64,000 nucleotides of DNA from Alphaproteobacteria bacterium. Its GTDB lineage: Bacteria > Pseudomonadota > Alphaproteobacteria > UBA7887. Of this stretch, positions 4,926 through 46,948 are shown piece by piece. The DNA is taken from the NCBI GenBank assembly GCA_965201155.1, contig OZ241752.1, forward strand, positions 719,047 to 783,046. The letters run 5' to 3'. Every line of letters starts with the position of its first letter. Within the stretch, counting starts at the first letter, position 1. The translations under genes were made by a program, and so were the position numbers. The notes beneath the pieces were generated by a model that made no database searches, was not told the origin of the DNA, and was given only the letters and a program-made list of their open reading frames with translations.

Positions 4926-6308
4926 TCATTCATAGACCTCGCGGTAGCGCCGCACCACGCGCAGCGCGATGACATTGAGCGTGAGGGTAACCAGAAACAG
5001 GGTGAGACCGAGCGCGAAGGCGGCGAGCGTCTTGGCGCTGTCGAACTCCTGGTCGCCGACGAGCAGCGTGACGATCTGCACCGTCACCGTGGTCACCGCC
5101 TCCATGGGGTTTGCGGTGAGGTTGGCGGCAAGGCCGGCGGCCATGACGACGATCATGGTTTCGCCGATCGCACGCGACACCGCCAGCAGGATGGCGGCGA
5201 CGACCCCCGGCAGGGCGGCGGTCAACACGATGCGGCGGATGGTTTCGGAGTGCGTGGCGCCCAGCGCGTAGGAGCCGTCGCGCAGGGTTTGCGGCACGGC
5301 GTTGATCACATCGTCCGACAGCGAAGAGATGAAGGGGATGATCATGAATCCCATAACCATGCCGGCGGCCAGGGCGCTTTCCGAATCCACCGACAGCCCC
5401 AACGCCTCGCCGCCCTGGCGCAGCAGCGGCGCCACGGTGAGGGCGGCGAAAAAGCCATAAACGACGGTGGGGACGCCGGCGAGAATCTCAAGCAAGGGCT
5501 TTACTACGGCGCGCAGGCGCGCATCCGCGTATTCCGACAGATACACCGCGGACATGAGGCCGATGGGGACAGCGACAAGCATGGCGATGAACGTGACAAG
5601 CAAGGTGCCAGCAAACAGCGGCACGGCGCCGAACGCCCCCGAAGCGCCGACCTGGTCGCTGCGGATGGCGGTTTGCGGGCTCCATTTCAGGCCGAACAGG
5701 AATTCGTCGACGGGCACTTTGGCGAAAAAGCGTATCGACTCGAAGGTGAGAGAGAGAACGATGCCGAGGGTGGTGAGAATGGCGATCGTCGAGCAGGCGA
5801 CAAGCGTGATGCGCATCACGCGTTCCACGCGGTCACGCGCGCGGAGCCGCGGTGTGATTTTTTTCTGCGCGTACAGCAGGCCGAGAATGGCGGCGGCGAT
5901 GGCGGCGACCGCCAGCGCCATGGCGCCGATGGTCCGGTACTGGTTGAGTTGTTCGGCGGCGGCCAGGATTTCGGGACTGCTGTTGACGCTGAAGGCGCTG
6001 CCTGCCGCCGCATTGCGGATGTCGTTCATCAGCAGGCCGAACTTGTCGGCCGACAGCGCCTGCATCTCGGGCGGTAGACTGGCGCCGATCACTGCTTCCA
6101 CGATCACCGGCTGGGCGATGAGCCAAGCAGAAGCGATGATCAGACTCGGCAGGCCGCACCAAAGCGCGACATAGCTGCCGTAATAGACGGGAAGCGCCTG
6201 CAGGCGGTGCAATTGCCCACCCACCGCCGCCGCGGATTCGCGGCGGCCAGTGACGTAGCCGATCATCACAAGGGCCAGCACGGCCCCGATCATGACGGTG
6301 AGCGGCAT
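4926..6308 (-). CDS. pstC: phosphate ABC transporter permease PstC
   Basis: Polytopic permease with an EAA-like loop. Position between pstS and pstA. Confidence 0.9.
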   Translation of the reverse strand: MPLTVMIGAVLALVMIGYVTGRRESAAAVGGQLHRLQALPVYYGSYVALWCGLPSLIIASAWLIAQPVIVEAVIGASLPPEMQALSADKFGLLMNDIRNAAAGSAFSVNSSPEILAAAEQLNQYRTIGAMALAVAAIAAAILGLLYAQKKITPRLRARDRVERVMRITLVACSTIAILTTLGIVLSLTFESIRFFAKVPVDEFLFGLKWSPQTAIRSDQVGASGAFGAVPLFAGTLLVTFIAMLVAVPIGLMSAVYLSEYADARLRAVVKPLLEILAGVPTVVYGFFAALTVAPLLRQGGEALGLSVDSESALAAGMVMGFMIIPFISSLSDDVINAVPQTLRDGSYALGATHSETIRRIVLTAALPGVVAAILLAVSRAIGETMIVVMAAGLAANLTANPMEAVTTVTVQIVTLLVGDQEFDSAKTLAAFALGLTLFLVTLTLNVIALRVVRRYREVYE

Positions 6309-38805: not shown

Positions 38806-41140
38806 TCAGTCGGCGCCGGCAGCGACCTTGCCACTGTCCCCGTCGGCGCTGTCCGCATCGTCGGGCGGCGGGTCCGCTGGGGTGATATCGAACGCAGCCT
38901 TTCCTTCCTCGACGCGCACCTTCACATGGCCGCCCTGTGTCAGGCTGCCGAACAACAGGGCTTCGGCCAGGGGCTTCTTGATGTGCTCCTGAATGACGCG
39001 CGCCAGGGGGCGTGCGCCGTACAGCCTGTCATAGCCCTTTTCCGCAAGCCAGCGGCGCGCATCGTCGGTGAGTTCGATAGTGACGGCGCGGTCGGCCAGC
39101 TGGGCCTCAAGCTGGACAATGAACTTGTCGACCACGCGATGCACGATTTCCGGCGGCAGATTGGAAAAGCCGATAATCGCGTCGAGCCGGTTGCGGAACT
39201 CCGGTGTGAACATCCGGTCGATGACTTCGCGGTCATCGCCGGTGCGCGCCTCGCGTCCAAAGCCGATTGCCGGCTTGGCAAGTTCGGACGCGCCGGCATT
39301 GGTCGTCATGATGAGGATGACATTGCGGAAATCCACCGATTTTCCGTTGTGGTCGGTGAGCTTTCCGTGGTCCATCACCTGCAGGAGTATGTTGAACAGG
39401 TCGGGATGCGCCTTTTCGATTTCATCGAGCAGGAGCACAGCGTGCGGGTGCTGGTCGATGGCGTCGGTGAGGAGCCCGCCCTGATCGAAGCCGACATAGC
39501 CCGGCGGCGCGCCAATGAGCCGCGAAACAGTATGGCGCTCCATATATTCGGACATGTCGAAGCGGGTGAGTTCAATCCCCATGATCGCAGCGAGTTGGCG
39601 TGCGACTTCCGTCTTGCCGACACCCGTGGGGCCGGAAAACAGGTAGTTGCCGATCGGCTTTTCCGGTTCGCGCAAGCCGGCGCGGGCCAGCTTGATGGCG
39701 CCGGTAAGCGTCTCGATGGCTGAATCCTGCCCGAACACGACGGTTTTCAGACTGGTTTCCAGCGAAGAAAGCATGGCCTTGTCGTCACGGCTGACGCTCT
39801 TCGGGGGAATGCGGGCGATCTTCGCGACGATGCGTTCGATTTCATCTTCGTTGATGGTGGTCTTGCGGCGGTCTTCGGGCAGCAATACCTGGGCAGCGCC
39901 GACTTCGTCGATGACATCGATCGCCTTGTCGGGCAATTTCCGGTCGCCGATATAACGCGCCGACAGCTTGACCGCGGAACGCAGGGCGTCGTCGGTATAT
40001 TCCACCCGGTGATATTCCTCGTAATAGGGCTTGAGGCCCTCGAGAATCTTCACGGCATCGTCGATGGACGGCTCGTCTATGTCGATTTTCTGGAAGCGGC
40101 GAACGAGCGCGCGGTCTTTTTCGAAGTAGTTTCGATATTCCTTGTATGTGGTCGACCCCATGCAGCGCAGGCTGCCGTTTTGCAGGGCGGGCTTGAGCAG
40201 ATTGGAAGCGTCCATGGCGCCGCCGGAGGTGGCGCCCGCGCCGATCACCGTGTGAATTTCATCGACGAACAGGATGGCGCCGTCATGCTGTTCCAGTTCG
40301 GCGAGCACGGCCTTCACTCGCTCCTCGAAATCGCCGCGATAGCGTGTGCCGGCAAGCAGCGAACGAACCCATGTCGAGGGCAAATATGACAGCGTTGTCG
40401 AGGACATCCGGCACTTCGCCGTCAACGATGCGCTTGGCGAGACCTTCGGCAATGGCAGTCTTGCCAACCCCCGGGTCGCCGACAAACAGCGGATTGTTCT
40501 TGGTGCGCCGGCATAATATCTGCACCGTGCGCTCCACTTCGTCGCCGCGGCCGATAAGCGGATCGATGCGCCCGTCGCGTGCTTTCTGGTTGAGGTCGAC
40601 GCAATAGGCTTCGAGGGCCGCCTGCCCCTGCTTGGCGTTTTTCTCGTCCTCCTGTTCGGCGCCTTCCTTGTTGGCGCCTGAAGGGGTGCGCGAGTCGGAC
40701 ATGCCGGGCCGCTTGGCGACGCCGTGGCTGATATAGCTCACGGCATCGAGCCGGGTCATGTCCTGCTGCTGCATGAAATACACGGCGTGCGATTCGCGTT
40801 CCGAGAAGATCGCGACAAGCACATTGGCGCCTGTAACTTCCTGGCGGCCGGAGTTCTGCACATGGTGCACTGCGCGCTGGATGACCCGCTGGAAACTTGC
40901 GGTGGGGCGGGCATCGGAGGTCGGTTCGGGAAGCAGGACCGACCCGTCCTCATCGAGAAAATCCTCAAGAGCGGCGCGCAACTTGTCGATGTCGACATTG
41001 CAGGCGCGCAATACGGCGACCGAGTCCTGATCTTCGGTGAGCGACAGCAGCAGATGTTCGAGCGTTGCGAACTCGTGCCCGCGCGCATTGGCGTGAGCAA
41101 GTGCGCGATGCAGCGATTCTTCCAGCGTTTTGGACAACAT
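38806..41140 (-). pseudogene. clpA: ATP-dependent Clp protease ATP-binding subunit ClpA, interrupted by a +4 frameshift (tandem TTCG duplication at about 40360-40367)
   Basis: Two ORFs (40283..41140 N-terminal, 38806..40485 C-terminal) together encode a complete ClpA: N-domain, AAA+ D1 with [10 protein letters not shown]2 with GPTGVGKTE. On the coding strand the junction reads ggTTCGTTCGctg, which breaks the conserved [18 protein letters not shown]. Confidence 0.6.
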
Positions 41141-41156
41141 GGCTCGGCTCTCCGGA

Positions 41157-41486
41157 TCAATCTTTTTCGAGCGTGCACTGAAGCGGATGCTGGTTCTGCT
41201 TCGCGAAATCCATCACCTGCGTCACCTTGCTTTCAGCAACTTCATAGGAATATACGCCGCAGATGCCGACACCGCGCCGGTGCACATGCAGCATGATGCG
41301 GGTTGCCTCCTCGCGCGACTTGCGAAAAAACCGCTCCAGCACGTACACGACGAACTCCATGGGCGTGTAGTCGTCATTGAGTAGCAACACCTTGTACATA
41401 GAGGGTTTCTTGGTGCGAGGCTTGGTTCGCGTCACGGTGCCCACATGGAGGCCGCCGCCGTCGCGATCGTCGTCGTCGTCCGCCAT
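41157..41486 (-). CDS. clpS: ATP-dependent Clp protease adaptor ClpS
   Basis: 109 aa. Acidic N-terminus (MADDDDD) followed by the ClpS core [24 protein letters not shown]. Immediately upstream of clpA. Confidence 0.9.
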
Positions 41487-41955
41487 TGCGGTGCGCCGTC
41501 GGGCTGGAAGGGGGTGAGGCATCGCTATCACACCCTCAAGACGGCCTCTCGTCTGACGGACTGCCGCGTCCTGCATCTCTGCGCTGCCTCTCTGCCGGCA
41601 CGGTCGGTTGCCTGTCATGATAGCCCATTCCCGCCCGCCGCATAACCCGCGCCTTGCGGCGCGCCAAGTCCACAGGAAGCGGGATTTGCGAGCGTGCCGG
41701 CTGTCGTCGCACGAAGCCACCTAAATTCCGGTAATGCATCGGGGCGCGAGAGACGAGCCATACAGGCTACACAACGGCCAGTTAGTGCTATAGGCCTTCC
41801 GCCATTCCGTGGCCCGGTTCCGGGTACTCGCATTACCAATGCGCCGACCGACCGAACGCTGGTCACATAACCGCATTCATCTTCCGATGGTTTGAACGAT
41901 CAGCAAGCAAGAGCGAAGCGTTCCTAGATGGGAGGTTCACATACCTCAAATTCAC

Positions 41956-42149
41956 TCAACGATCAGCCAAACGTCGCAATTCAGCTTGATACCGAGATAT
42001 CAAGACATTGATCGGCTCCGCGCGCTTAAAGAATGTTTGAGAGTCAACACCGTCCTCGGCGGTCAGTTTCGCAGCATTTCTTATCGTTTTGATAGCCCCT
42101 TTTCCCACTTGATTAGTCCAGTTTGGGAAACCCACCTGCGCGACCTTAA
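41956..42149 (-). pseudogene. Fic/Doc-family protein, displaced 3' portion (last 63 codons)
   Basis: Removing the IS and one TTAA copy joins ...EEVGVK to VAQVGFPNW... in a single frame, giving a 296-aa ORF that ends at 41956. Confidence 0.7.
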
Positions 42150-43432
42150 GGGAGGCTCTCAAAATCGCCTACTTTTCTCATTTATGTTGTATAATCCGGG
42201 TTGTTGTCTCGGGAGGCGGATTTGATGGGCATGCCGGGTTTTTTCGATCTTGAAGAACGGTTCGCAAAGCTTGACGGATTGGGCGATCCGTTGGCGAAGC
42301 TGTCCGGTTCTGTGAACTGGGAAGGGTTTCGCCCGGCGCTGGACGCGGCACTGTCGAAGCCGCGCAAGAGCAATGCCGGTCGCAGGGAATACGACCGGGT
42401 TCTCATGTTCCGGGTTCTGGTCTTGCAGCAAATGTACAACCTGAGCGACGACCAGACAGAGTTCCAGATCCGGGACCGCTATTCGTTCGCCCGGTTCCTG
42501 GGGCTGCATCCCGAGGATACGGTGCCCGATGCAAAGACCATCTGGCGGTTTCGGGAGAACCTGAAACTCGCGGAGGCGTTTGACAGCCTGTTTTCGGAAC
42601 TGTCCTCGCAGATCGAGGACCAGGGCTATGTGGCGCGCAGGGGACAGATCGTGGATGCGAGCTTTGTGAAGGCGCCGCGTCAACGCAACAGCCGCGACGA
42701 GAACGCACAGGTGAAGGCGGGGAAGGTTCCGTCCGAATGGTCGCAGAAGAAGCGTCGTCACAAGGACACCGACGCACGCTGGACGCGCAAGAGAAATGAA
42801 ACCCATTACGGATACAAGAACCACATCAGCGTGGACCGTGCGTATCGTCTTGTCCGTCGCTGGGAGGCGAGCGATGCGGCGTGTCACGACAGCAAGATGT
42901 TCGAACAGGTGCTTGATGAGACGAATACCAGTGGCGCTGTCTGGGCCGACAGTGCCTACAGCAGTCGCCACCATGAGGCGTTGCTGGCCGAACGAGGCTG
43001 GCGCAGCCACATTCACCGCAAGGGGCATCGCAACCGCCCCTTGCCTGTGCGCTCCCAGGAAGCCAACCGCAAGCGTTCGAAGGTGCGCGCGGTCGTCGAA
43101 CATGTCTTTGCTCAACACGAAGCGATGGGCGGCAAGCGGGTCAGGACTATCGGCATGGTCCGGGCACGCTTCAAGATCGGCATGATGAACCTGGTGTACA
43201 ACCTGCGCCGGCTTGTCTGGCTGCGGGCGAACCACCGGCCCCTCTGCTGCGACAGGGTTCAATAGAATGCCGAACACGGGGGGCCTATGTGCCCTGTGAA
43301 CCGTTTCAGGCTCTCCAACCGCTGTCGGGAACCGTTTTCCCCACCTGATCCGTAGTTCCACCGACTCTTTCATCCCCACAAAACCGACAAATCAACCAAG
43401 GAAAACAAGAAATCAAATTACGAGAGCCTCCC
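42150..43432 (+). mobile_element. IS5-family insertion sequence (about 1283 bp) with terminal inverted repeats GGGAGGCTCTC and a 4-bp TTAA target-site duplication
   Basis: Left end GGGAGGCTCTC at 42150-42160, right end GAGAGCCTCCC at 43422-43432. Flanking direct repeats TTAA at 42146-42149 and 43433-43436, consistent with IS5 insertion into YTAR targets. A single transposase ORF lies inside. Confidence 0.85.
42201..43265 (+). CDS. IS5-family DDE transposase
   Basis: 354-aa ORF with an N-terminal DUF772-like region (FRVLVLQQMYNLSDDQTE) and a DDE domain. The likely start is MGMPGFF at 42225. Confidence 0.85.
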   Translation: MLSREADLMGMPGFFDLEERFAKLDGLGDPLAKLSGSVNWEGFRPALDAALSKPRKSNAGRREYDRVLMFRVLVLQQMYNLSDDQTEFQIRDRYSFARFLGLHPEDTVPDAKTIWRFRENLKLAEAFDSLFSELSSQIEDQGYVARRGQIVDASFVKAPRQRNSRDENAQVKAGKVPSEWSQKKRRHKDTDARWTRKRNETHYGYKNHISVDRAYRLVRRWEASDAACHDSKMFEQVLDETNTSGAVWADSAYSSRHHEALLAERGWRSHIHRKGHRNRPLPVRSQEANRKRSKVRAVVEHVFAQHEAMGGKRVRTIGMVRARFKIGMMNLVYNLRRLVWLRANHRPLCCDRVQ

Positions 43433-44133
43433 TTAACACCAACTTCTTCCTTTTCACCCAATATACCAAACACTTTTCGCCGTTCTTCTATTCGCACCAG
43501 ATCAATTGTATTTCCTCTAGGATTTTGAAGATCATAGCCGAACGAGTTCAATATAGTTTTTAGTTCTCTAAAAGTGACCGTGTAGTATTTTTTATCTAAC
43601 TTTCGCGTATGCTTTTTCAAGAAATAGGATATATAATTGACTTGAGCATCAGCTTTATCTGAGCACTTTCGCTCTAATTCTTGATAACGCCTGGATTTAC
43701 GGAAATTACCTTTGGCCACATCTACCGCAAAATCCTCTAACTCTCTGTGGCCTATTATCGGAACTAAGTTTAACTTTTGAAGATGATAAACTAACGACAA
43801 AAAAGCCGTTCTCTTGTTAGCGTCGTAAAATGGATGATCTTTAATCAAACCAAAAAATAACGTTGCGCAGATATCCCAATTGGACTCCCATTTTCGTCTT
43901 CCGGCGAACATAACATGTTGACGATGAAGTGCAGAATGAAGAAGATTCATGTCCTTGGGTCCGATACCGCCCAGCCCACGTCCTCGAGCAAAGAAGTGAT
44001 CAGCAATCAAGTAGTGCGCTTTTAGCACATCCTTTATTCCAAGATAACCCGGCCCAGAATAGGGATCTTCATCGTCGAGTGATGCCAAAGATGATTGATA
44101 GGATATCCGAATTGGCTCAGCTAAGTACTGCAC
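43433..44133 (-). pseudogene. Fic/Doc (Fido)-family protein, 5' portion (codons 1 to about 233), truncated by the IS5 insertion
   Basis: Doc-type active-site motif HPFYDANKR (HxFx[D/N][A/G]NKR). About 45% GC, against about 65% for the window. The frame continues into the IS end. Confidence 0.75.
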
Positions 44134-44222
44134 GCTGTCTCTTCCCTCATTCTCGTACCAACCGGCTAGGCGGTGAATTCAACCGCAAGCGCAATAATCT
44201 GGGGGCCTTCGTCGAGTTGTCT

Positions 44223-44558
44223 TCAGGGTGATGCGGTGTGCAGCAATCGCCGCATGGCCGTGTCAAAGCTGTAGACGCCACCCAGCGATTCACTGGAGTG
44301 CGATGCGGCGCGCAATGCCTTGAACACGATCAGCGCATCGGTGAAGTCGGTCCCATCTGCCGGCACGGCATTCCGGTACGCTTGCAGGGCGTGCCACACA
44401 ACCTGTTCATCCTCGAAACGAATATTGGTGTCGTTGAACAGCCCTTCAAGAACCCTCACAAGTTCTGCTTTGGTCAGCCGATATTTGCGCCCGGCGAGAG
44501 TCCATACAGCTTCCGCCAGCACAACATCGGTGATCACCACGGTCCCTGCAGCATCCAT
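44223..44558 (-). CDS. PIN-domain (VapC-like) toxin
   Basis: 111 aa with PIN acidic residues: N-terminal VVITDVV (first Asp), middle RFEDEQ, and C-terminal DFTDALIV plus FDTA. 89 bp upstream of the Fic/Doc gene on the same strand. Confidence 0.65.
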   Translation of the reverse strand: MDAAGTVVITDVVLAEAVWTLAGRKYRLTKAELVRVLEGLFNDTNIRFEDEQVVWHALQAYRNAVPADGTDFTDALIVFKALRAASHSSESLGGVYSFDTAMRRLLHTASP

Positions 44559-45162
44559 GACAGAGTCCGCACGCGCCGCCTGAGCCTCGTCATCATGCAG
44601 CAGTTAGCGGAGCAGAACATTGCTATCCACGACGATCAAGGCGTCGACCCGTCAAGAGCATCCTGCGAGGAATCCTCGTCGGCAATTGCAGTGTCGCCGG
44701 CTATGTTCCGAAGGATCCCCTTGGCCGCGCCGGCAGTCTTCGGCACAATGGTAATTCGACCTTCGGCGACAAAGCTGCGGTATTCGCTCCCCGGCTCGAT
44801 CCCGACTTCCCTGTACTGATTGATGGGGGGAGGGTGATCTGGCGTTTTGCGCGCGCTCGCGGCATCGGATGGTCCTTCCCGGCATGGCGGGCTCGGGTTT
44901 GCAATGCCATTTTCTTTACCATTCCCCAAATTGCCGCGAGGCCAGTCCGCCCCGGCGAAACAGCACAATCGCGCATAGCACGCCGGATTGGCGGCCTTGC
45001 CGGGGTCGGGAGAGAGGCGCTGGGAAAACAGGCGGCGGCCCTGCGCCGGGGAGATGCATAAAGTATTGAAAGAATGAACTGTTTCGGACGGTATGTCGGG
45101 CGGGGATTTTGTGCTTGTCAGGTTTTGAATTTCATGATAGCCTAGTGTCAGAACTTCACGGG

Positions 45163-45196
45163 GCCTCTTCACGGGGCCTCTTCACGTATTAAGAGT
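45163..45196 (+). repeat. tandem 13-bp direct repeat (CTTCACGGGGCCT, 2.5 copies) in the 5' leader of the lipoprotein gene
   Basis: The sequence reads cttcacggggcctcttcacggggcctcttcacg. An imperfect hairpin agaggcctcgtaagaggtctct follows at 45207-45228. Confidence 0.8.
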
Positions 45197-45262
45197 AGAG
45201 GCCTCGTAAGAGGTCTCTCACTGGAGGCTCCCCAACCGAATCATTATGGGGGTCCTCCATCA

Positions 45263-46948
45263 ATGACACTTCCAAGAAGCTCTCTCGCGGTCATGTTGGC
45301 CGCGCTTGTTGCGGCGGGCTGCAGCGATAGTGATAGCTCGCCCCCTGCCATGCCACAAACTCCGCCTGAAACGCCTGCACCGACGGTCCATAACCTGGAA
45401 CTCCCGGCGGGCGACCTTGGCTCGCTTGCCGCCGGTATGCTGATGCTTGGCGCTGGCGATACCGCAACCCGCGGCAATGTCGAGTTTTCGTGCCCTGCCG
45501 GTGGAGATGCGTGCAGTATCGAAGTCATGGACAGTGTCGGCACGCTGACAGCGCAGTCGACCGGCGGCATGGCGACGGCCATGATGGTCGAGATGCTGGA
45601 AGATCCGATGCCGACGGTCCATATGCTGGAACTCCCGGCCGGCGACCTCGGCTCGCTTGGCGCCGGTATGCTGATGCTTGGCGCCGGCGATACCGCAACC
45701 CGCGGCAATGTCGAGTTTTCGTGCCCTGCCGGTGGAGATGCGTGCAGTATCGAAGTCACGGACAGCCTCGGCACGCTGACAGCGAAGTCGACCGGCGGCA
45801 TGGCGACGGCCATGATGGTCGAGATGCATGTTGACCCGGATCCGGCGGTCCATAGCGTCATGCTGCCGAGCGGCGCCAAGGCCGGCGGCCTCTCCGCAGG
45901 CAACACCATGGTCACCGCCGGCGCCAGCAGGATGGTCGGCAATTTCGTTTTCACCTGCGCCGCCGGCGCGATGGATTGTAACATTGAAGTGTATGAGAAC
46001 CTCGGAGTTCTCATGGCCAAATCAACCGGCGGCATGGCAACGGTGATACCGTTGTCGATGTACCTGCCGGGCGATACGCCCACATCTCCGGCCACGGCCT
46101 TCGGTTTCCTCAATGACGAGATGCTGCCTGATATCTCGATGTGGAAGATGGACGGCGGCAAGTTGGTGAAGCCGATGACCAAGAAGGAGGCTTTTGCAGC
46201 GGCGATTACGGGCGCCAACGATACAACCACCGGGGTTATGTCTCACATAGAGCTCGACAATGGAAGTCGTGTCGGCGTTAGTGGATTTTCCATGGTAGGA
46301 GATGGCAAAGGCATGGAATATAGCCAGCTAGCCATGGCCGGAGGTTATCTACGTGGCGACACAACGGCAGATTCCTCAGACCTTGGTGGGTTCGACGGAT
46401 ATAGCCTGATGGGTGCCCTGACCACTGGCGCGGACAGAAGTTGGACCGCTGAGGCGCTGGTTTTCTCGGACGGGGCTGAGGACGGAGCCACAAACTTCGG
46501 CATCTGGGCTGCTGATTTTGGAGATGTCCACAGTGCTGACCTCATGAGGGTGGGCGTGTTTGCTCAACTGCCGAGCATGGCCGGGAGTAGCTTTGCGGAT
46601 GATGTTTTAGGCGGCATGGCCACCTACTCCGGTGGAGCCGCTGGCTTTATCGCCGGCAACGACATGAATGATGTCTGGACAGGCGTGGTCGACCTGAATG
46701 CCAATTTCACGCAGGGAAATGAAACTATCGGCGGCATGATCAGAAGTGGCAGCATCCCGACCATTACACTTAGCCCCCAACGCGTTGACGCCATCTCGAC
46801 CATGATGAAAGGTCGCGCGTTGGCCAAAGTGGCGGGTGCGCCGGAAGGAAGATGGAACTGGGCCTTCAGCGATGACGCAGGGCAAGTCGGCGGCACGGTT
46901 GATGTATCCAACATCATCGGTGCTTTCGGCGCGCACCGGAACTACTAG
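45263..46948 (+). CDS. surface lipoprotein with three N-terminal 77-aa Cys-pair modules (two near-identical) and a TbpB/fHbp-like C-terminal beta-barrel domain. Methionine-rich.
   Basis: Signal peptide plus lipobox LVAAGC. Modules carry FSCPAGGDACSIEV and a recurring STGGMATAMMVEM motif. C-terminal pattern GGMATYSGGAAGFIA...VWTGVVDLNANFTQGN.TIGGMI...GRWNWAFS...VGGTVDV.NIIGAFGA matches lipoprotein 8-strand barrel handles. Confidence 0.8.
   Translation: MTLPRSSLAVMLAALVAAGCSDSDSSPPAMPQTPPETPAPTVHNLELPAGDLGSLAAGMLMLGAGDTATRGNVEFSCPAGGDACSIEVMDSVGTLTAQSTGGMATAMMVEMLEDPMPTVHMLELPAGDLGSLGAGMLMLGAGDTATRGNVEFSCPAGGDACSIEVTDSLGTLTAKSTGGMATAMMVEMHVDPDPAVHSVMLPSGAKAGGLSAGNTMVTAGASRMVGNFVFTCAAGAMDCNIEVYENLGVLMAKSTGGMATVIPLSMYLPGDTPTSPATAFGFLNDEMLPDISMWKMDGGKLVKPMTKKEAFAAAITGANDTTTGVMSHIELDNGSRVGVSGFSMVGDGKGMEYSQLAMAGGYLRGDTTADSSDLGGFDGYSLMGALTTGADRSWTAEALVFSDGAEDGATNFGIWAADFGDVHSADLMRVGVFAQLPSMAGSSFADDVLGGMATYSGGAAGFIAGNDMNDVWTGVVDLNANFTQGNETIGGMIRSGSIPTITLSPQRVDAISTMMKGRALAKVAGAPEGRWNWAFSDDAGQVGGTVDVSNIIGAFGAHRNY
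45380..45841 (+). repeat. tandem direct repeat of 2 x 231 bp, about 94% identical, within the lipoprotein coding sequence
   Basis: Copy 1 spans 45380-45610 and copy 2 spans 45611-45841. Both begin ccgacggtccat and both contain ...ggcaatgtcgagttttcgtgccctgccggtggagatgcgtgcagtatcgaagtc... Confidence 0.9.

Follow-up and report, generated by a model that had tools for sequence, protein, structure and literature searches.

The locus described here lies in a 64,000-nt stretch of an alphaproteobacterial contig (OZ241752.1; hereafter the window, to which all positions refer) and contains a gene for a Doc-type Fido protein downstream of a PIN-domain toxin gene. Between clpS and a gene for a repeat-containing lipoprotein, ~3.5 kb of the minus strand hold three frames in the same orientation, a vapB-like antitoxin gene, a vapC toxin gene and the Doc gene, together with one insertion sequence (IS) that splits the last of them (Table 1). 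A first-pass annotation, made from the letters alone, had described this region as a low-GC islet and had suggested that the PIN toxin and the Doc protein belong to one composite toxin-antitoxin (TA) or abortive-infection-like module.

Table 1 Features of the islet and its two flanks in window coordinates
Feature	Position	Strand	Content or basis
Repeat-containing lipoprotein gene	45263-46948	plus	one flank of the islet
vapB-like antitoxin pseudogene, AbrB/MazE-like	44636..44865	minus	~75 codons; frame analysis and alignment to a 75-aa homolog
vapC (PIN-domain toxin) pseudogene	44223..44639	minus	138 codons; frame analysis, Pfam PIN, 11 aligned homologs
Spacer, vapC stop to Doc start	44134..44222	minus	89 bp
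Long-Doc gene, 5' part	43433..44133	minus	codons 1-234; Doc/Fido domain and first two thirds of the C-terminal domain
IS5-family insertion sequence	42150..43432	plus	1,283 bp; terminal inverted repeats, transposase profile, TTAA duplication
Long-Doc gene, 3' part	41956..42145	minus	codons 235-296 and stop; final strand and helix of the HicA-like fold, then the conserved helical tail with its C-terminal ...RRLADR
clpS	41157-41720	minus	other flank of the islet

The Doc open reading frame (ORF) starts with GTG at 44133 and carries the motif HPFYDANKR at codons 100-108 (43836-43810). After codon 234 it is interrupted by the IS5-family element, so that the frame as it stands (43306-44133) encodes 275 residues, of which 234 are native and 41 are read-through from the IS. 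The element is bounded by 11-bp perfect terminal inverted repeats, GGGAGGCTCTC, and is flanked by a TTAA target duplication (42146-42149 and 43433-43436). It carries an ORF for a 354-aa DDE transposase (42201-43265, plus strand) that matches the NCBIfam model NF033581 (transpos_IS5_4) with 273.5 bits, well above the cut-off of 140, over positions 2-284 of the 285 of the profile. There is one copy in the window. The element is like other IS5-family elements of the transpos_IS5_4 type in its DDE_Tnp_1 and DUF772 transposase, its short terminal repeats and its 4-bp AT-rich target duplication, and it shows nothing unusual. When the element and one TTAA copy are removed and 44133-43433 is joined to 42145-41956, an uninterrupted ORF of 296 codons results. 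Its product can be aligned from end to end (100% of its length) with many database proteins of 296 aa, and the best of these shows 69% identity. The insertion at the TTAA site has inactivated the gene, which we call long Doc. The 296-aa Doc-type protein of the first-pass annotation is correct for the ancestral gene, while the window has no contiguous coding sequence of that length because the IS splits it. Since that annotation spoke of a reconstituted gene and began its coordinates at 43433, which is the IS boundary, its reader was aware of the break. The interval given there does not take in the 3' part of the gene (41956-42145). Two exact-pattern scans of Joint Genome Institute (JGI) metagenomes found no intact allele of the window's Doc gene.

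The assignment of HPFYDANKR to the kinase-type Doc variant was borne out: the protein matches NCBIfam TIGR01550 (DOC_P1) with 42.1 bits against a cut-off of 38.65 and Pfam Fic/DOC (PF02661) with an E-value of 8.8e-10, and its predicted fold matches that of P1 Doc. PADLOC returned only motif-level matches, to the candidate system PDC-S23.

The 111-aa PIN ORF upstream of the Doc gene (44223-44558, minus strand) is present as first noted but lacks the catalytic Asp5, and it is the remnant of a 138-codon vapC gene past a nonsense codon at position 12. The frame runs on upstream as TTG-IVVDSNVLLR-TAA (44639-44604), with the start codon TTG at 44639-44637 and the in-frame TAA at 44606-44604. When Tyr12 was restored in place of the TAA, the Pfam PIN match changed from an E-value of 5.4e-4 over profile positions 27-104 to 3.8e-10 over positions 1-104. 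The restored VapC is 65-75% identical to 11 aligned homologs. They belong to a large group of VapC toxins, most of which are 144 aa long, and NCBI gives one homolog the name VapC family toxin. All 11 homologs have Tyr at position 12, and the four acidic residues D5, E43, D101 and D126, which the restored protein shares with VapC toxins in general, are invariant in the alignment. The restored PIN score, the identity to the homologs and the universal Tyr12 together indicate that the TAA is a nonsense mutation in a once-intact vapC.

The ORF upstream of vapC, which ends in ...EVGIEPGSEYRSFVAEGRITIVPK..., is also present, with its stop at 44636. It had been described as having no recognisable start codon, but an ATG at 44865 opens the frame as MPRARAKRQITLPP..., and a frameshift within a run of six C (44825-44830) explains why a start seemed to be lacking. 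The first 13 residues from this ATG read MPRARAKRQITLP and the remainder, INQYREVGIEPGSEYRSFVAEGRITIVPK..., follows in another frame; a 75-aa homolog, MPRVSAKRQITLPIDQCREVGIGPGDEYRSFVADGRITIV... (from locus L089), aligns across the frameshift. The stop codon TGA of the antitoxin (44638-44636) overlaps the vapC start in a 4-bp TTGA arrangement, and a close VapC homolog, P0322 (70% identical, 144 aa), also overlaps a 75-aa antitoxin gene by 4 bp. Such a small upstream antitoxin overlapping the PIN toxin by 4 bp is found in VapBC systems with an AbrB/MazE-fold VapB, and AbrB-PIN is the commonest AbrB pairing in Table 2 of Makarova 2009, with 312 occurrences as compared with 48 for AbrB-Fic/Doc (PMC2701414). 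The upstream ORF is thus a decayed antitoxin, as had been supposed, and its AbrB/MazE identity is plausible from the sequence, the match being weak: the intact 75-aa homolog reaches an E-value of 0.049 with Pfam PF04014 (MazE_antitoxin/SpoVT-AbrB), which is below the cut-off. The pair differs from the known VapBC systems of this kind in this weak Pfam assignment and in that both genes are disrupted. We conclude that the frameshifted vapB and the vapC with its Tyr12-to-stop change are an ordinary vapBC pair, now disrupted.

The low GC content of the islet is real, and that of the reconstituted Doc ORF (42.2%) is lower than the 45-48% given in the first-pass annotation. It lies 22 points under the whole window (63.9%) and 16-19 points under the vapBC genes, the PIN gene having 58.0% and the antitoxin 61.3%; the IS has 58.8%. 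The 89-bp gap between the Doc and PIN ORFs was confirmed, and this spacer contains no terminator-like site, no promoter-like site and no Rfam match. Scans for promoters and terminators stayed at background level, Rfam had no match in 41000-45400, and a search for flanking inverted or direct repeats of the islet (attC-like or MITE-like ends) that could explain its mobility found only 7-9-mers expected by chance.

Relationship between the vapBC pair and the Doc gene

Conserved synteny of the antitoxin, PIN and Fido genes was searched from both sides and did not recur. On the Doc side, loci were collected from GTDB species genomes (80 loci) and, for the others, from metagenomes, and the neighbour survey covered 81 non-redundant loci, in which all ORFs of 35 aa or longer situated up to 1.5 kb from the Doc gene were compared by all-against-all BLASTP. 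A tblastn search of these loci with the restored PIN and antitoxin gave a single PIN match, ~2 kb from the Doc gene (locus L047), and none adjacent to a Doc gene. No neighbour family was common to more than 6 of the 81 loci; the most widely shared one, present at 6 loci that include three Pseudoxanthomonas genomes, looks like vertical synteny. The ORFs that lie on the strand of the Doc gene and no more than 200 bp from it include no recurrent small partner, and one possible RHH-type ORF, judged by eye, lies near the Doc gene of locus L073. On the vapC side, the genomic context is that of the one close homolog P0322, shown in six places that all share one context, and in none of the six is a Fido/Doc gene found downstream of the toxin. 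In addition, the window's PIN gene has a canonical partner of its own in the VapB-type gene directly upstream, with which it shares the TTGA overlap; this speaks against its forming a unit with Doc.

From the loci surveyed and the difference in GC content, we consider it highly probable that the locus represents two unrelated, separately acquired and now inactive toxin elements, the vapBC pair and a partner-less long Doc with a fused C-terminal region, whose adjacency is coincidental. All three toxin and antitoxin genes at the locus are disrupted. Some observations weigh against this view. vapC and Doc could be co-transcribed, as they lie on the same strand and the 89 bp that separate them have no recognisable terminator; apart from such read-through, nothing points to a functional link. 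The vapB frameshift, situated in a homopolymer, could be an assembly error, and so could the single-base nonsense change in vapC.

If both of these lesions were sequencing or assembly errors, the vapBC pair would be functional, and only the neighbouring Doc gene, split by the IS, would be truly broken. The run of six C is a typical site of long-read error, vapB and vapC are otherwise 70-75% identical to intact homologs and bear no further damage, and the sequence appears to come from an unannotated source that may be a metagenome assembly. We nevertheless regard this explanation as unlikely, because vapC is broken by the substitution of a base (TAY to TAA) and not by an indel, and because another gene of the window, clpA, is interrupted by a 4-bp tandem duplication rather than by a homopolymer error, which suggests real gene decay in this genome. 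The vapC nonsense codon is less probably an assembly error than the vapB frameshift. A single composite, co-transcribed TA or abortive-infection module of the AbrB-like antitoxin, the PIN toxin and Doc, which would agree with the close same-strand spacing of the three genes (a 4-bp overlap, then the 89-bp gap), with the absence of a terminator-like site between PIN and Doc and with the known partnership of AbrB-type antitoxins with both PIN and Fic/Doc proteins, is very improbable given that none of the 81 Doc loci has an adjacent PIN gene, that P0322 belongs to a two-gene pair followed by other genes, that the vapBC and Doc genes differ so widely in GC content and that the Doc family occurs as a stand-alone gene in many phyla.

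A composite PIN-Doc module is therefore not supported, and the window's long-Doc copy is dead. The pairing amounts to two dead, unrelated elements side by side and does not merit pursuit as a new composite system. What does merit attention is the uncharacterised family to which the Doc gene belongs, a partner-less fusion of a Doc domain with a HicA-like fold.

The long-Doc family and its C-terminal domain

Relatives of long Doc were found in 589 database clusters at E<=1e-3, the best ones listed carrying only the Fic Pfam domain, and in 162 cases in GTDB species genomes. The family extends over Alpha-, Beta- and Gammaproteobacteria, Bacteroidota, Acidobacteriota, Planctomycetota and Chloroflexi, where the gene is solitary and its contexts are ever-changing. 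No cognate antitoxin gene was found, either between vapC and Doc in the window or as a conserved neighbour at the 81 loci. The family thus comprises a few hundred clusters in several phyla that combine a Doc kinase with a conserved domain for which Pfam and NCBIfam have no model, and that lack an antitoxin gene. NCBI names its members "type II toxin-antitoxin system death-on-curing family toxin", so that the databases label them merely as type II toxins despite this lack.

In 74 of 75 loci (among L003-L085), the long-Doc gene has a lower GC content than its flanks, by 16.6 points on average, by up to 34 points, and by more than 10 points at 59 loci. The low-GC islet is therefore a trait of the family and not a local oddity, and the horizontal acquisition proposed in the first-pass annotation fits both this mean and the deficit of the Doc ORF in the window. 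Neither flanking repeats nor an integrase that could account for the movement of the gene was found, and no full-length long Doc occurs in 72,556 plasmids. Prophages do carry it. In a contig from IMG/VR (L086, 4983-5873), long Doc stands as a moron between virion-morphogenesis-like and baseplate-like genes with tail genes nearby. In a second case (L002/L057, ~5001-5891), the carrier is a Mu-like prophage, where the gene adjoins an S24 repressor-like gene and a D12-class (Dam-type) methyltransferase gene, with Mu Gp36-like and capsid genes in the vicinity. The genome with this prophage copy, which is intact (L057), also has a long-Doc homolog that is split after ~codon 122 by a different IS5-family element (L076, 2347-4528, in an alphaproteobacterial metagenome-assembled genome). 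That element is ~1.28 kb long, encodes a 360-aa transposase and is flanked by a 4-bp ATCT duplication; it is related but not identical to the one in the window. The family has thus been hit by IS5-type elements twice, independently.

The whole protein of ~290-296 residues is conserved, with a mean column identity of 59% over 41 members, in all of which H100, D104, N106, K107 and R108 of the family motif HPF[HY]DANKR are invariant. An AlphaFold2 model of the full-length protein (predicted local distance difference test score, pLDDT, 85.7; predicted template modelling score, pTM, 0.77) has an N-terminal helical domain of ~175 residues, whose best matches in the Protein Data Bank (PDB) are the P1 Doc structures 3dd7 and 3k33 (Foldseek probability 1.0, TM(target) 0.75). 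Long Doc therefore resembles the Doc of the P1 Phd/Doc system in its fold, in its motif HxFx[D/N][A/G]NKR and in scoring above the cut-off of TIGR01550, and like it can be carried by prophages. It differs in that its Fido domain has extra helices and is fused to a C-terminal domain of ~120 residues, which makes the protein more than twice as large, as first noted (296 as compared with 126 aa), and in that it has no phd-like or other conserved upstream gene and is absent from plasmids.

The C-terminal ~120 residues equal the catalytic domain in conservation. Invariant positions are R177, L195, N204, D211, F240, P241, V247, R256, L261, G266, D268, S269, L282, L290 and L293, and the carboxy-terminus is conserved as ...L-A-[D/N]-R. 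No Pfam or NCBIfam model covers this region, and in none of 33 members does it match any Pfam family, HicA included. In the full-length model it contains a helix (188-197), three strands (200-206, 209-219 and 228-239) and a second helix (249-258); when modelled alone (pLDDT 81.8), it forms a helix-strand-strand-strand-helix unit followed by three short helices. Mean-field direct coupling analysis (DCA) of 254 members (effective number 206) gave beta3-alpha2, alpha1-beta1 and hairpin contacts that are consistent with this predicted fold. The best PDB match of the domain is 1whz (Foldseek probability 0.98, E 0.06, TM 0.61), which is TTHA1913, a HicA-family protein with a dsRBD-like fold (PMC3969222, PMC10865869).

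The C-terminal domain shares the alpha-beta-beta-beta-alpha topology of HicA toxins. Its conserved residues are concentrated at two places, the beta1-beta2 loop (N204, P205, N208, D211) and the stretch that follows beta3 (GFPxW), and the loops regarded as important for binding the substrate in HicA are beta1-beta2 and beta3-alpha2 (PMC3969222). It differs in lacking the Gly-Ser-His catalytic motif, in place of which the loop has a conserved N-P-x-x-N-x-I-D without a conserved His, and in lacking a Pfam HicA match. No HicB partner, adjacent or fused, accompanies it at the 81 loci, the N-terminal partner being the Doc domain. A fusion behind a Doc domain is outside the 14 genetic contexts of HicA catalogued in Gerdes 2024, which mentions no Doc or Fic fusion. 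As judged from the models, the C-terminal domain is HicA-like in fold but is not a HicA. Against this assignment, it hangs on one Foldseek match with a modest E-value, an hhalign comparison with E. coli HicA was not significant (probability 1%) and the Pfam HicA model matches none of the 33 members. A PHROG "toxin" family was matched weakly (E 0.063). A likeness to the MADS-box protein MEF2 in a PDB profile search was sub-threshold (E ~0.5) and treated as chance, and KA1-domain matches in the Foldseek lists were set aside for their low probability.

A search of 1.84 billion representatives with a profile of the C-terminal domain gave 546 clusters. In the 147 listed matches that were examined, the domain invariably forms the C-terminal end, and in all the full-length proteins a Doc motif precedes it. 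Matches of 117-126 aa raised the question of stand-alone domains or a split toxin-antitoxin version; the one that was checkable (L087) is an ordinary fusion protein cut short by the edge of its contig.

Two further features were noticed at individual loci. In two Pseudoxanthomonas genomes, a divergent paralog of 249 aa with ~27% identity is encoded ~40 bp downstream of long Doc (L054, 4913-5662; L070, 3187-3936). It has the same architecture, with the motif HAFENGNKR, the C-terminal domain and an end in ...RRLADL, so the long-Doc architecture is not confined to the 296-aa group and may be found in tandem copies. Four gammaproteobacterial loci (L008, L041, L054 and L070), three of them from Pseudoxanthomonas, have a conserved DNA element, located immediately before the Doc start, that reads as ...LFELWVFEVWVI... 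in small spurious ORFs and that may be a lineage-specific regulatory repeat.

Possible functions of the C-terminal region

P1 Doc is a Fic-fold kinase that phosphorylates EF-Tu, and by analogy the N-terminal domain of an intact long Doc would phosphorylate a translation factor. Because no antitoxin gene accompanies the family, we assign control or targeting to the fused C-terminal region and infer that this domain would regulate or target the kinase in cis. It could be a cis-acting inhibitor and trigger sensor, following the examples of CapRel and EzeT, with terminal helices that would act like the neutralising ones of Phd. Alternatively, it could be an RNA- or ribosome-binding domain that targets the kinase. 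Cis-inhibition can be put forward only tentatively, and a role in targeting or substrate recognition is about equally likely.

Like CapRel(SJ46) and EzeT, long Doc is a single gene without a separate antitoxin that is sometimes borne by prophages, and it joins a toxin enzyme domain to a conserved non-catalytic domain that may be a regulator or sensor in cis. CapRel is a tRNA pyrophosphokinase and long Doc a Doc kinase, for which autoinhibition would be assumed by analogy. The toxin of EzeT is a zeta-type kinase of UDP-N-acetylglucosamine (UNAG), unlike the Doc kinase of long Doc. A specific form of the cis-inhibition model, which we hold to be possible but doubtful, is that long Doc is a single-chain, self-inhibited Doc kinase, that is, a fused TA or phage sensor. 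In this model a trigger, for instance an RNA or a phage protein, would be sensed by the degenerate HicA-fold domain, and the conserved two-helix tail ...LIxxYxxPLxRLADR-COOH would fill the Phd-binding groove in cis until the trigger releases it.

The model draws on what is known of Phd. Two helices of the Fic core are missing from Doc and are contributed by Phd through fold complementation (PMC2686095), and the C-terminal helices of Phd are a transferable linear neutralising element (PMC10440598) with hot spots at F56, I59, M60, H63, L67 and L70 (PMC9207808). In an ungapped alignment anchored at the C-terminus, Phd 56-73 falls on long-Doc 279-296 and ranks first among 279 offsets (z 3.4, column-shuffle P 4e-4, post hoc). 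The hot spots then coincide with position 279 [I/M/L/V], L282, I283, Y286, L290 and L293 of long Doc, all conserved as hydrophobic or aromatic in this post-hoc alignment, and both proteins end in [V/A]-[N/D]-R. Several results weigh against cis-inhibition. The anchored-alignment test was devised after the sequences had been seen. An hhalign comparison of the tail with Phd detected no similarity, and a PDB profile search with the tail was negative. The DCA couplings that link the tail to the Doc domain were at background, and those of R296 track a clade with K296. Moreover, the window's allele persists in the genome although the IS removes exactly its tail and helix alpha2. That a tail-less allele is tolerated fits better with a C-terminal region that is needed for activity than with an antitoxin role, unless the protein is unstable or not expressed.

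A different explanation is that long Doc is not a toxin but a regulated housekeeping or signalling kinase, to which the RNA-binding-like C-terminal domain gives substrate specificity. The tolerated tail-less allele would be in keeping with this, as would the lack of an accompanying antitoxin gene, the strong conservation of all 296 residues and the chromosomal location of the family, which is absent from plasmids. This is less likely than either cis-inhibition or a targeting role, and we think it improbable: the family is patchy across phyla and its genomic contexts never repeat, the gene is richer in AT than its flanks, prophages carry it as a moron and ISs have disrupted it in two independent cases. 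Patchiness, AT-richness, prophage carriage and IS hits are hallmarks of mobile conflict genes rather than of housekeeping genes.

If the C-terminal region of long Doc acts as a regulator or sensor in cis, Doc would join the small set of single-polypeptide toxin-immunity proteins and long Doc would offer a tractable model of how a Fic-fold kinase is switched. If the region is a targeting domain, the substrate of long Doc may be other than EF-Tu. The self-inhibited kinase of the specific model would, if true, be a Doc-based counterpart of CapRel and a previously undescribed fusion of Doc with a HicA fold, one that spreads as an AT-rich single-gene islet.

Genes flanking the islet

The clpS ORF as listed encodes 187 aa, of which only residues 104-183 form the ClpS domain. 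The true start of clpS is probably well downstream of the listed one, so that the intergenic stretch beside the 3' end of the Doc gene would be longer than the ORF list implies. Directly downstream of clpS, clpA (38806-41140, minus strand) is split into a 285-aa ORF with the Clp_N domain and a 559-aa ORF with the AAA domains. The lesion, at ~40360-40367, is a tandem duplication of TTCG, TTCGTTCG, and deleting four bases restores the canonical sequence; either the gene for an important protease subunit has truly become a pseudogene here, or the assembly is in error. On the other side of the islet, the plus-strand gene encodes a predicted lipoprotein-like protein of 561 aa, which is without a Pfam match and whose N-terminus, ...LAALVAAGCSD, resembles a lipobox. 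We noticed in it two near-identical internal repeats of ~110 aa and a divergent third (...LELPAGDLGSLxAGMLMLGAGDTATRGNVEFSCPAGGDACSIEV...).

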